Shown here: piece by piece, positions 14,635-24,936 of the stretch
Numbering within the stretch: position 1 is the first letter of the stretch
Layout: each line of letters starts with the position of its first letter
Source: Myxococcota bacterium
GTDB lineage: Bacteria; Myxococcota_A; SURF-8
Direction of reading: 5' to 3'
DNA length: 64,000 bases
NCBI GenBank assembly: GCA_965140415.1
Contig: OZ223209.1
Coordinates: 3,232,001-3,296,000 of the forward strand
Position numbers and translations under genes: made by a program
The notes under the pieces: model-generated
Seen by the model: only the letters and a program-made list of their open reading frames with translations
The model's database searches: none
Told to the model about the DNA's origin: nothing

Positions 14635-14813
14635 CGACTTGACTTCTTCTCCACTTACATCCAGAAATCGCCCGTGACGTGTGGTGGTCTGCTTCTATCA
14701 CCTTTGAACTTTATTTCGTTTTCGACCATTCACGCAAGCATAGTATCATAAATATCGATTCCCCCTGCCCTTCTTTTATAGTGAGCCAATAGTTACGGCA
14801 AACGGCTATATTG

Positions 14814-14866
14814 GACGCGAAACGACCGGTAAACGAACAGTAAATAGCCGCCAAAAGACCGTAAAT
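14814..14866 (+). repeat. 53-bp phased five-unit array, copy 1
   Basis: gacgcgaaac gaccggtaaac gaacagtaaat agccgccaaaa gaccgtaaat (10-11-11-11-10). Confidence 0.7.
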
Positions 14867-14960
14867 TGCCAGTGGTCCATTCACGCATGTTGTCAGTTGC
14901 TGTCTGCTGTTATATTACGCTGCGAAGTGCTGCCTCATGCTGCACTATAAAGCACTGTCA

Positions 14961-15013
14961 CTCTTCGTGCCTTTAGTGGCGTTTTACTGGTTGTTTACTG
15001 TGCGTTACCGTGC
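14961..15013 (-). repeat. 53-bp phased five-unit array, copy 2 (inverted relative to copy 1, more diverged)
   Basis: Minus strand: gcacggtaac gcacagtaaac aaccagtaaaa cgccactaaag gcacgaagag. Confidence 0.55.
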
Positions 15014-15134
15014 CAAGGCGGTCGTGCCCGATGCTATCTTATTTACAAGTTCTCTCTCTGCATGAGCATACCAATATATCATGTTCCAGCGTCGAGGAAT
15101 TAAGCGGTGACAGTCAAGCATCCGATTGTTGCAT

Positions 15135-15249
15135 AAAATAAGAACCCCGTAAGCAGTGCGGGCGCCCCCCCAACCTGCTTACGGGGTTTACTACAGGGAG
15201 ACCATCTTATTATTCTAAAACTGGGACTCGCCACGGGCCCTGTAGTGAG
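15135..15249 (-). ncRNA. Candidate ~115-nt small RNA (two stem-loops ending in an intrinsic terminator)
   Basis: Stem 15190-15198/15238-15246 (ACTACAGGG/CCCTGTAGT); 14-bp stem 15143-15156/15175-15188 followed on the minus strand by CTTATTTT; sigma54-like promoter directly upstream; no ORF in the track. Confidence 0.6.
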
Positions 15250-15259
15250 TCATATCATA

Positions 15260-15275
15260 TGAAAAATGCGTGCCA
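15260..15275 (-). promoter_or_regulatory. Putative sigma54 (-24/-12) promoter
   Basis: Minus strand TGGCACGCATTTTTCA versus consensus TGGCACGNNNNTTGCA; one mismatch, in the -12 GC. Confidence 0.55.
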
Positions 15276-15351
15276 CCTTTCTAAGCAGTAGTAATTCCAC
15301 AAGATAATTAATATACTTACCTGAAACCATCAAAAACACGCCCGGAAACTC

Positions 15352-15462
15352 TGACAATCGTGTCGCAGTGTCAAGAGATAGGTAAAGAAAAGCTGTCTAT
15401 CGATGTTTTATTCGGGACTTCCGGCTAAAACTCCTGGAAGAGCAAGCACGACAGATTTGTCA
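15352..15462. promoter_or_regulatory. Two palindromic YGACA-N4-TGTCR sites (15352-15365, 15449-15462); candidate enhancer-binding-protein UAS
   Basis: TGACAatcgTGTCG and CGACAgattTGTCA, roughly 80 and 175 bp upstream of the sigma54-like box. Confidence 0.5.
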
Positions 15463-15892
15463 TGCTCTCCCTGAAAACGGGCAAATTTGCTTAAGTTACA
15501 ATGACCTGTAAACCGAAGTCATTTAAATCCAGAAGCGCCCCCAATTCCCCAATCTTCTCGTTCTCAAAATCAGCGATTACCAACGATGCCACTCAAGTAA
15601 GCGACTCAAAGTTAAATTATTGCTAAACAGTGGAAATAAAACGCTTTCCCCGCCCGTCCATTCATTAGCTCAATAGAGCACCGTTTTTGTGATACTTTAT
15701 GATAATACTCGATGCAACAAGGTTTTAAGGAAACCGTAGAATGTCCCCAAACAAGTTTCTTTTCAATTGGAAATATTCACGGATCGATTCCCCTCTATCA
15801 GGATGCCAACTCAACTGGCAGATTCAGTACGAAACCAAAACCATTTCCGGTTTTTATAAAAGCAACCGGCACCAACCAATGGAGGATACGAG

Positions 15893-22116: not shown

Positions 22117-23174
22117 TGATGACAGGCATCGACAGTTCGTCCGACATTTCCACATTGGCCGTTCGCATCCAGCAAGGCGACCGGATCGCAATTGCCAATG
22201 CGTTGAACCTGATGGACGACCGACGTGCCAGTTCCCAAGACCGCGCGTCGATTTTGCTGGATTCACTAATCAACTCAGAATACGAAAATGACCGCCACCT
22301 GATCGGATTGACCGGCCCACCCGGAGTCGGCAAATCGACTTTAAGCTCCGCGTTGATTGCAGCCTGGCGCAAGCAGGGGAAAACGGTCGGCGTGTTGGCG
22401 GTCGATCCTTCCAGTTCCGTAACGGGCGGGGCGCTGCTCGGCGATCGACTACGCATGATGGCGGGCAAATCCGATACCGGCGTTTTCATTCGCTCCCTGG
22501 CGGGACGTGGCGAACATGGAGGTCTGGCCGCTGAAATCTGGCCGATGAGTCAAGTGCTTATGGCCGCGTTCGATCGCATCTTGATCGAAACCATCGGTGT
22601 CGGTCAATCCGAAATCGATGTTGCCACGATCGCCGACACGACCTGTTTCGTAGCGCAACCGGCAGCAGGCGACAGCATCCAGTTTTTAAAAGCGGGAGTC
22701 ATGGAAATCCCGCACATTCTACTCGTCAACAAATCGGACCTTGGAAAAATTGCGGAACAAACCCAAGTGGAATTGCAACGCGCCCTGCCTTCTTTTGAAG
22801 ATTCCGTATCCCTGCGTTGGCGCTCTCAGATCCAATCTGTCAGTGCGCTTACCGGAGCGGCCATTCCCGATCTGGTCGATCAGATCGAACGCCATCGACA
22901 CTGGCTGATCGATCACAACTTGTTACAAACCAGACGTAAAGAGTTTCAGATCGACTGGGTGCTAAAGCGCCTGCAATTGGAATTCGGCTCGTTTGGTATT
23001 GACCGACTTGGTGGAAAATCCAAAATTTCCAAAGCTCTGCTTCATTCCCAGGATTCTCCATTTTCCAGATACCGCATCTATCGACATCAATTGACTGCCG
23101 CCTTTTCGGCGGATGTCGGACAAAATTACAACCACAGCGAAAAGGACTTGAGTGATGACCAAAGATCTATATGA
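22113..23174 (+). CDS. meaB: MeaB/ArgK-family GTPase chaperone of B12 mutases
   Basis: [44 protein letters not shown]. Confidence 0.92.
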
Positions 23175-24936
23175 CATCGGTGAAGCTCCCCCATTAGGAA
23201 TCGTCCCCCCAAAAATGCACGCATGGCTGATACGCGAGGAACGATTCGGCGAACCGATGAAAAGTTTTCAGAAAGAAGTCGTAGACGTACCTGAAATCAA
23301 GGACGATGAAGTCCTGGTTTACGTCATGGCGGCGGGAGTCAATTACAATAACGTCTGGTCCGCCCTGGGTACGCCGGTCAACGTCATTCAAGCCCGCCAG
23401 AAGCAGGGAGAAAAGGAAGACTTCCACATCGGCGGCAGCGACGCCAGCGGCATCGTGTACAAAACGGGGAAAAGCGTCACCAATGTCAAAGTCGGCGACG
23501 AAGTGGTGATCCACTGCGGCAGTTGGAGCCAGGATTGTCCCATGGTGCAGCGCGGCGAAGACCCGATGTTCAGCCCGACGTTCCGAATCTGGGGCTATGA
23601 AACCAACTACGGCAGTTTCGCTCAGTTCACTCGCGTTCAGGGACACCAGTGCCTGCCCAAGCCCAAGCATCTAAGCTGGGAAGCGGCTGCCAGCTACATG
23701 CTGGTAGGGGCTACGGCCTATCGTATGTTCCTTGGATTAGGCGACAAGTCATTGAAAAAAGACGACGTGACCCTGATCTGGGGCGGTGCGGGCGGCTTGG
23801 GTTCCATGGCCATTCAAATTGCAAAAGCCGTCGGAGCGATCCCGATTGCAGTCGTCTCCAACGACAACAAATTCGAATATTGCGAAAGCCTGGGGGCGAA
23901 AGGCTGCATCAACCGCACGCATTTCGACCATTGGGGAATGCTGCCCCACTGGAAAGACACCGCAGGCTATGCCAAGTGGTTCAAGGGCGTTCGGAAATTC
24001 GGCAAAGCGCTTTGGGATGTGCTGGGAGAGAAACGCGCACCGCGAATCGTCTTCGAGCATCCCGGAGAGGCGACCATCCCGACATCCCTTTTCGTAGCGG
24101 AGACCGGCGGCATTGTGGTGATCTGCGCAGGAACCACCGGTTACAACGCCACCGTGGATCTTCGCTATCTCTGGATGCGCCAGAAGCGCGTACAGGGTTC
24201 GCATTTCGCCAACGATGTGCAGGCGGACGGATTTAATCGCCTGGTGATCGAAGGCCTGGTCGATCCCTGCCTGTCGAAGTCGTTTACCTACAATGAGTTG
24301 CCGCTTTCTCACCAATTGATGTACGAAAACAAGCACCCGCACGGCAACATGGGCGTGCTTGTCGGCGCGACGGAATTCGGCCTGGGAATTTCGGAAAAGA
24401 CACCTCATCCATCGCCATTCTTCGCTTTGTCAACGGACGATACCCACGACAAAGTCCCCCCGTATCCTCTTTCCACGCCGACTCCGAAATTCATTACGGA
24501 GCCGCTTGAAACGTTGGAACTGGAACTGGTTGACGACGGAACTCTGGTGCGCGATCTCATGCATCCGGGGCTTGTCACCTGCTCACCGAGCGATTCGGTG
24601 AAAGAGGTCGCGACCCGCATGGTTGAAAACGATATCCATGCCGTGGTTGTCGTTTACGATGCGGAACCGGTGGGCGTGGTCTCACAAACCGATATGGTGC
24701 TCGCCCGCCAGGGCCGCAGCGCCGATGCGGTGAAAGGATTGAAAGCCAGCGACATCATGACGCCCGGCTGCGTAACCTGTACGCTGGATACCTCTCTATC
24801 CGATGCCGTTTCCACCATGACCGGGCTGCGCATCCATCGTCTGATCGTGACCAGACAGGATCACGGACAAAATGTCCCCATCGGCGTGATTTCGATGACG
24901 GACATCATCCGCAAACTGGTGGTAGACGCCAACTGA
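23155..24936 (+). CDS. ccr: Crotonyl-CoA carboxylase/reductase with a fused C-terminal CBS pair
   Basis: [57 protein letters not shown]; then a Pro-rich linker and two CBS repeats. Confidence 0.92.

Follow-up and report, generated by a model that had tools for sequence, protein, structure and literature searches.

We have found that the window, i.e. the whole 64,000-nt stretch of Myxococcota DNA analysed here, very likely carries a real gene for a small RNA on its minus strand, which is conserved within a single order and preceded by a σ54-type promoter. The mechanism that explains the sequence comparisons best, with a somewhat better than even chance of being correct, is a trans-acting RNA that would regulate many surface-lipoprotein mRNAs by base-pairing. 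The RNA probably tunes the cell surface and not carbon metabolism. The parts of the gene are listed in Table 1.

Table 1 Features of the small RNA locus (positions in the window)
Feature	Position	Strand	Remarks
Predicted small RNA, ~113 nt	15135..15249	minus	ends inferred from promoter spacing and terminator
σ54-type promoter P2, TGGCACGCATTTTTCA	15260..15275	minus	−24 GG; −12 TC replacing GC
Proximal enhancer-like palindrome CGACA-N4-TGTCA	15352..15365	strand-neutral	centre −83 to −85 from P2
Distal palindrome TGACA-N4-TGTCG	15449..15462	strand-neutral	overlaps ATG of the broken small gene; position not conserved
A+T-rich spacer, possible IHF region	15276..15320	minus	71% A+T over the 45 nt preceding the promoter
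Core CCCGUGGCG(A/G)GUC, candidate seed	15224..15237	minus	12 of 13 positions unchanged over the 8 loci
Outer stem, 9-bp arms 15238-15246 and 15190-15198	15190..15246	minus	encloses core and variable AU-rich segment
UCUCCC	15196-15201	minus	partly within the 3′ stem arm
Terminator-like 14-bp hairpin	15143-15188	minus	predicted fold at all 8 loci
U-rich tail CUUAUUUUAU	15133-15142	minus	directly after the 14-bp hairpin
Broken frame of 59-63 aa orphan gene	15317..15463	minus	frame intact at 7 other loci

Promoter, structure and distribution of the predicted RNA

The elements described in an earlier, sequence-only reading of this DNA (two related palindromes, an AT-rich spacer, a promoter, a stem, UCUCCC, a hairpin and a U-rich tail) were all recovered on the minus strand where that reading had placed them. 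Its central proposal, a small RNA gene behind a σ54-type promoter and enhancer that is absent from Rfam, also appears sound: the Rfam search over the window locus gave two chance matches only, far under the gathering thresholds, and the seven homologous loci gave none. The statement that the region contains no ORF holds for the RNA; upstream of it, however, and covering the first palindrome, lies the disrupted frame of a small gene which is intact in relatives. From the spacing to P2, we predict the transcription start (+1) near 15249.

The unit of RNA, promoter and enhancer was found at eight loci, in seven of the ten genomes of the order and on one metagenome contig (L018), so the expected conservation in relatives was borne out. 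When the 1.25-kb gap was compared by BLAST with 40 relatives, the RNA region matched in four of them; G006 and the metagenome contig were added by a pattern scan, whose matches carried Myxococcota record titles, and by the first RNA model. This model missed G008, which belongs to another family and was recovered via the small protein encoded upstream. The recurrence of the unit at seven other loci with conserved spacing is more than expected by chance. The RNA was not detected in the remaining genomes of the order, G003 (86% complete), G005 (79%) and G007 (95%), and the RNA model gave no strong match beyond the order among 151 genomes of the phylum, its seven strong matches all being training sequences of the model. 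A paralogue search showed the RNA to be single-copy in each genome; four weak matches of 19-21 bits, with neither promoter nor stem by eye, were dropped. Twenty pattern matches in viral contigs, with best partial scores of 13-18 bits, were taken as chance. Some loci have a convergent gene downstream and others a co-directional one, and the RNA is not a leader since its neighbour genes change between loci.

A TGGCAYG promoter ends 22-24 nt ahead of the core at all eight loci. The −12 element of P2 reads TTTC at seven of them (T at −13) and has the canonical GC in G008. The mismatch at this element, which the earlier reading had considered a possible cause of an inactive promoter, is therefore not a sign of decay, being common to seven loci while the eighth is canonical. 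A palindrome GACA-N4-TG(T/C)C is centred at −83 to −85 from P2 at each of the eight loci, the copy in G008 being imperfect. The spacer contains 56-71% A+T at these loci, and an IHF-like match was present at three of them, the window not among them.

The window's genome (G000) contains rpoN and 29 activator-domain matches, none of them in a gene near the RNA locus. Of its 65 intergenic σ54-like sites, ten have the palindrome upstream, as against 0.6% of random intergenic positions; the controls at the same sites gave 0 downstream and 0-2 for other spacer lengths. In partial sequence of relatives, the palindrome precedes 4 of 16 σ54-like sites and other spacers gave none. Six of the nine other palindrome promoters in G000 precede lipoprotein or secreted-protein genes by inspection. 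These nine promoters lie at 170610, 224410, 250189, 250837, 1032400, 3859280, 4821987, 5150940 and 5967571, and two of them adjoin a gene for an unusual 980-aa activator (246983-249925) with an N-terminal helix-turn-helix-like start. This protein is a candidate activator of the RNA besides the PilR-like one encoded at 5546800. The consensus of PilR is of the TGTC type, which did not turn up in those portions of the PilR literature that were searched. The σ54 promoter of pilA has GACA-N5-TGTC and not N4, so that PilR is also a candidate only.

The predicted fold of the 123-nt RNA stretch is stable (z −4.5; none of 200 shuffles equally stable), whereas the folds of two homologues were not significant against shuffles (18/200). 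In the outer stem, 96.6% of the cells over the eight loci are paired (at most 47.7% in slid controls). The anticipated covariation was also found: 5 of 11 pairs show two-sided changes, in a structure drawn from the same eight sequences and with most changes supplied by G008. Shuffles reached the outer-stem values in 0-1 of 500 cases, and in 39 of 500 for pair types. The stem is extended by a 4-bp helix beyond a 3′ bulge. The arms of the terminator are divergent, yet a hairpin is predicted at all eight loci, with a weak tail in G008; a simple terminator scan called no terminator and missed the 14-bp hairpin. The core is the sole long invariant segment of the alignment, and its (A/G) position is a natural one-base variant of the candidate seed, with A changed to G in G008. 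The predicted accessibility of the core is low in the window's RNA and differs among the homologues.

Core complements upstream of lipoprotein genes

Complements of the core were sought upstream of the 4156 genes which a simple custom caller had defined in the window's genome. A search near start codons returned mostly lipoproteins with Asp-Gly-Asp repeats, and this DGD class, picked after that result, was then delimited by a fixed rule (391 genes, 355 of them with at least 30 nt of non-coding sequence upstream). About 390 predicted lipoproteins of this genome have Asp-Gly-Asp repeat tethers following the lipobox. The expansion is also seen in family f1, G008 and G036 and not in G006, G007 or G009.

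Core complements rank 1, 2, 4, 9 and 10 of 9081 7-mers for enrichment upstream of the DGD genes. On the sense strand they precede 35 of 355 DGD genes and 87 of 2683 others (p 1.5e-7); chance alone would account for about 11 of these 35 genes. The antisense control gave 14/355 and 86/2683 (p 0.27). None of 2000 shuffled seeds matched this enrichment. When the 14 genes that had suggested the class were left out, the counts were 29/348 and 82/2678 (p 1e-5), and when only the last 100 nt were considered, 22/301 and 49/2068. In a sliding scan along the RNA, the enrichment of complements peaked at nt 13-24. The signal is specific to a single base, as the 7-mers of the window's own core occur upstream of 28/355 DGD genes and 67/2683 others, as against 5/355 and 49/2683 for those of the G008 variant. 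Lipoproteins without DGD repeats showed no enrichment (8/195). The 35 site-bearing upstream regions are non-homologous, except for one shared divergent gap. Among the site-bearing genes are those starting at 1997143, 3863945 and 4647221 of the window's genome.

The repetition of the analysis in two relatives (1.2 Mb each) gave a weaker result than that in the window's genome, and it was driven by one of the two. Pooled, G001 and G004 had sites upstream of 12/124 DGD genes and 41/1086 others (p 0.005; 0/2000 shuffles); separately, the counts were 9/79 and 15/558 in G001 (p 0.001; antisense 6/79 and 14/558, p 0.03) and 3/45 and 26/528 in G004 (p 0.4). With a plain lipobox class, the pooled counts were 16/179 and 37/1031 (p 0.003). 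In the 0.4 Mb analysed in G008, none of the 18 DGD genes had a site for either version of the seed; at this length the compensatory test is underpowered. Sites of the window's genome were retained in 2 of 7 putative orthologues (p 0.12). By eye, at least one of its sites falls within what looks like a promoter spacer, and a match in G004 resembles an unrelated conserved upstream element. Counts of a combined seed-plus-RBS pattern gave too weak a signal for comparison between genomes. The RNA and the class do not fully coincide among genomes, since G006 and G009 have the RNA and few DGD repeats, and G003 and G005 have the repeats with the RNA undetected (79-86% complete). G001 and G004 together have 12 site-bearing proteins, of which seven matched Pfam families (Ig-like, PKD, beta-helix, MopE-type metal-binding repeats and one esterase-like) and five did not. 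Two lipoproteins encoded in the window, not site-bearing, are glycosidase-like and C25 peptidase-like.

Relative to the start codon, the sites are found 28-186 nt upstream, on the far side of the Shine-Dalgarno sequence, which they do not sequester. Blocking of a site was not predicted to open the Shine-Dalgarno region, so that simple anti-antisense activation is disfavoured. A position directly behind a −10 box, as expected for 5′-end stabilization, was found for 10 of 35 sites as against 19% (p 0.11, not significant). Six enhancer-driven secreted-protein genes were also checked and none had a site, in a sample too small for a test.

We give about one chance in four to the alternative that the σ54-dependent RNA is real and binds a protein or another RNA, as a sponge or decoy acting via its core or its G-rich loop, the motif ahead of lipoprotein genes then marking a separate site for a protein or a signal in the DNA, or arising in part as a statistical artefact. 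The terminator loop (15160-15175) has a pyrimidine followed by at least five G at all eight loci, and complements of this G-run were not enriched in the sliding scan of the window's genome; the run could pair with the CCCG stretch in the core or with some other RNA. Several other observations agree with a sponge or decoy: Hfq (PF17209) gave no match in the window's genome (93.7% complete), while the same model matched 5 of 14 control genomes; a basic protein of about 60 aa is encoded beside the RNA at seven of the eight loci; and the sites are weakly conserved between orthologues and absent from the 18 genes of G008. On the other hand, the motif that ranks first upstream of these genes reads as the precise reverse complement of the only invariant segment and has the orientation that pairing requires, and no second conserved box, which a promoter would need, flanks the sites. 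Furthermore, although CsrA is present in the genome, repeated GGA loop motifs are absent from the eight-locus alignment. These points argue for pairing of the core with lipoprotein mRNAs, which we prefer.

The small gene upstream and the neighbouring genes

An ORF of 59-63 aa with a ribosome-binding site and its own σ54-type promoter (P1) precedes P2 at all seven other loci, and its stop codon lies 6-12 nt before P2 where measured. The gene is truly coding because G009 and G006 differ at 11 places over 39 codons, each of them a synonymous third-position change. The proximal palindrome is situated within its conserved L-H-Y-D-K-x-V codons at all seven loci; such a dual role of one sequence, as enhancer and as codons of a conserved orphan, is unusual. 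The same GACA-N4-TGTC motif precedes both P1 and P2 at four of the seven loci, where the exact distal sites lie at −325 to −337, upstream of P1; the distal palindrome of the window lies at −180. In the window, the relic of the frame begins at 15463 behind a ribosome-binding site and retains HCDTIVR in frame (HYDKIVR in relatives), but codons 13, 31 and 49 are stops, and the window lacks P1. The HMM of the small protein found no match in the window's genome.

The small protein is a basic and aromatic orphan of 59-63 aa (e.g. L014:2278-2457:+), restricted to the order among the genomes searched. A search of 401 genomes gave six strong matches, all within the order, and three weak ones. According to two database searches, about a dozen short, unnamed proteins form its family, and five long proteins also matched in the small-protein database search with E of 2e-8 to 7e-4. 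It belongs to no Pfam or NCBIfam family, and neither a PDB relative (best E 0.66) nor a usable Atlas match was found; the Atlas model of the protein (pLDDT 0.48) is too poor to trust.

Since the small gene has P1 and stops shortly before P2, a transcript from P1 should run through the RNA. The structure might thus serve chiefly as 3′ UTR and terminator for the mRNA of the small protein, or belong to a dual-function transcript, and in the window's lineage be a decaying relic after loss of the protein. We regard this reading as improbable, in spite of the coding character of the gene and its own promoter at 7/7 loci, because P2, the enhancer spacing, the stem and the core are intact in the window, where both the frame and P1 are lost, and because the seed-complement signal is strongest in the window's genome. 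The broken frame itself would fit a relic, as would one contig of a near-identical population without the core. This single contig over the locus in run X2 (depth 11) shows no other difference over some 790 nt, but a gap of 19 nt (15229-15247) removes the 5′ arm and most of the core. As the missing stretch is flanked by a 5-nt inverted repeat, the gap is either a genuine loss-of-function allele or an artefact, and in the former case some populations of the species can do without the RNA. Run X2 also shows a loose end at 15526, suggesting an insertion upstream.

The idea that UCUCCC is an anti-Shine-Dalgarno seed of an RNA tied to the divergent ethylmalonyl-CoA operon is largely refuted and has very little probability left, for although the operon is present (Ccr over the cut-off, a mutase, a MeaB-like GTPase and a lyase-like first gene) and so is the motif, UCUCCC is replaced by UUUCCU, UUCCAU or UUUCCC in homologues, lies partly in the stem and has complements that are not enriched (19/355 and 97/2683, p 0.08), and the operon shows no synteny with the RNA. 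The link to carbon assimilation suggested by the earlier reading fails likewise: elsewhere the RNA has different neighbours, and only in this genome does it lie beside the ethylmalonyl-CoA genes. Ccr exceeded the cut-off in 3 of 11 genomes and in all but four of the six RNA-bearing relatives; in the two relatives having it, the gene is on another contig or 2.2 Mb from the RNA. The operon leader in the window contains no seed complement.

Several other features were noted in this part of the window. An inverted repeat TGCCA-N7-TGGCA (15804-15820), seen by eye about 75 nt upstream of the ethylmalonyl-CoA operon, is a possible operator. The crotonyl-CoA carboxylase/reductase gene (23152-24936) encodes a C-terminal extension weakly matching CBS-domain proteins, and the Ccr frames of G004 and G008 are likewise long (626-681 aa). 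An imperfect palindromic repeat of about 200-230 nt (14785-15021) lies between the RNA and a hydrolase gene. nhmmer found it at about 16 intergenic loci of the window's genome and at none in 20 relatives, and its DNA fold was no better than that of shuffles. One copy adjoins an IS200-type transposase-like ORF (271453-271881, by eye). The repeat is probably a non-autonomous IS200/IS605-related or REP-like element.

Proposed mechanism and comparison with known systems

In the mechanism that we favour, a σ54 enhancer-binding activator would bind GACA-N4-TGTC and switch on the stand-alone 113-nt RNA together with a small set of genes encoding mostly secreted proteins. The outer stem would present the invariant core of 12-13 nt, which could pair with ACUCGCCACG-type sites in at least about two dozen other surface-lipoprotein mRNAs at the upstream positions described above. 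In such a surface-protein switch, which turns one set up and another down, the RNA would form the post-transcriptional arm. In relatives, the activator may also drive the adjoining upstream gene for the 60-aa protein, within whose codons the enhancer of the RNA is located. MicA, RybB and MicL form the repressor arm of σE, and by analogy with σE and its small RNAs we infer that surface proteins are split into a group raised by the activator and a group lowered by the RNA. Repression, by loss of translation or faster decay, is slightly favoured over activation, as upstream pairing can repress: on one of its targets, GcvB can act some 50 nt ahead of the ribosome-binding site, according to the part of the source consulted (PMC8383071).

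A bolder version is possible, though we hold it to be rather unlikely. In this version, an Hfq-independent master small RNA would control hundreds of Asp-Gly-Asp-tethered lipoproteins through single dispersed seed sites of 7-10 nt, within a nested σ54 cascade, with its enhancer in the codons of a co-induced 60-aa orphan that may be a partner or a second effector.

With a −24/−12 promoter, an upstream palindromic enhancer, and rpoN and activators in the genome, the locus has features of σ54-dependent trans-acting small RNA genes, as it does in being a stand-alone unit with a conserved structure and terminator and no ORF. As far as the consulted parts of the sources go, the closest likeness is to Pxr of Myxococcus xanthus (RF01812), which also has a σ54 promoter with an upstream enhancer region, a length of about 108-115 nt, an occurrence in one Myxococcota clade and a trans-acting role (PMC5684412, PMC5568312, PMC11928866); direct Pxr targets were predicted and not confirmed (PMC11928866). 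In the same portions of these sources, Pxr has three predicted stem-loops and lies downstream of pxrK-pxrR, whereas the window's RNA has one enclosing stem and a terminator hairpin, and its family follows the orphan small gene or its relic with no adjacent activator gene. The RF01812 model was not among the matches up to E 5 over the window locus, gave none in the window's genome at E 1 and none anywhere in 61 genomes, in a search run without a positive control. Pxr was the sole myxobacterial regulatory small RNA to turn up in the literature searched, and none of the papers listed there dealt with the RNA of the window. The RNA would represent a second clade-specific σ54 small RNA family besides Pxr, with an explicit seed-target rule and a natural one-base variant in G008. 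It also suggests how about 390 similar lipoprotein genes could be coordinated post-transcriptionally without Hfq.

GlmY and Qrr are non-coding RNAs under a dedicated enhancer-binding protein. This arrangement is also described in the consulted part of the report on the σ54-dependent non-coding RNAs of Desulfovibrio vulgaris (PMC4641369). The window's RNA matched no Rfam family. DapZ-type small RNAs, in the part of the source consulted, similarly have a promoter of their own where the preceding gene ends, and share a terminator with its mRNA (PMC8383071). Here, however, both promoters are of the σ54 type, with the inner enhancer embedded in conserved codons of the 60-aa gene. The literature considered also included PMC3333781, PMC6211767 and bioRxiv 10.64898/2026.06.06.730518.

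Sponges of the CsrB/RsmZ type would be expected to carry the repeated GGA loop motifs that are missing here. GcvB, Qrr, MicA, RybB and MicL depend on Hfq. The predicted RNA resembles GcvB in that one short conserved seed would reach many envelope or transport mRNAs (PMC8383071). It differs from GcvB and the σE-dependent small RNAs in its σ54-type promoter and in its putative targets, which belong to a lineage-expanded class of lipoproteins.
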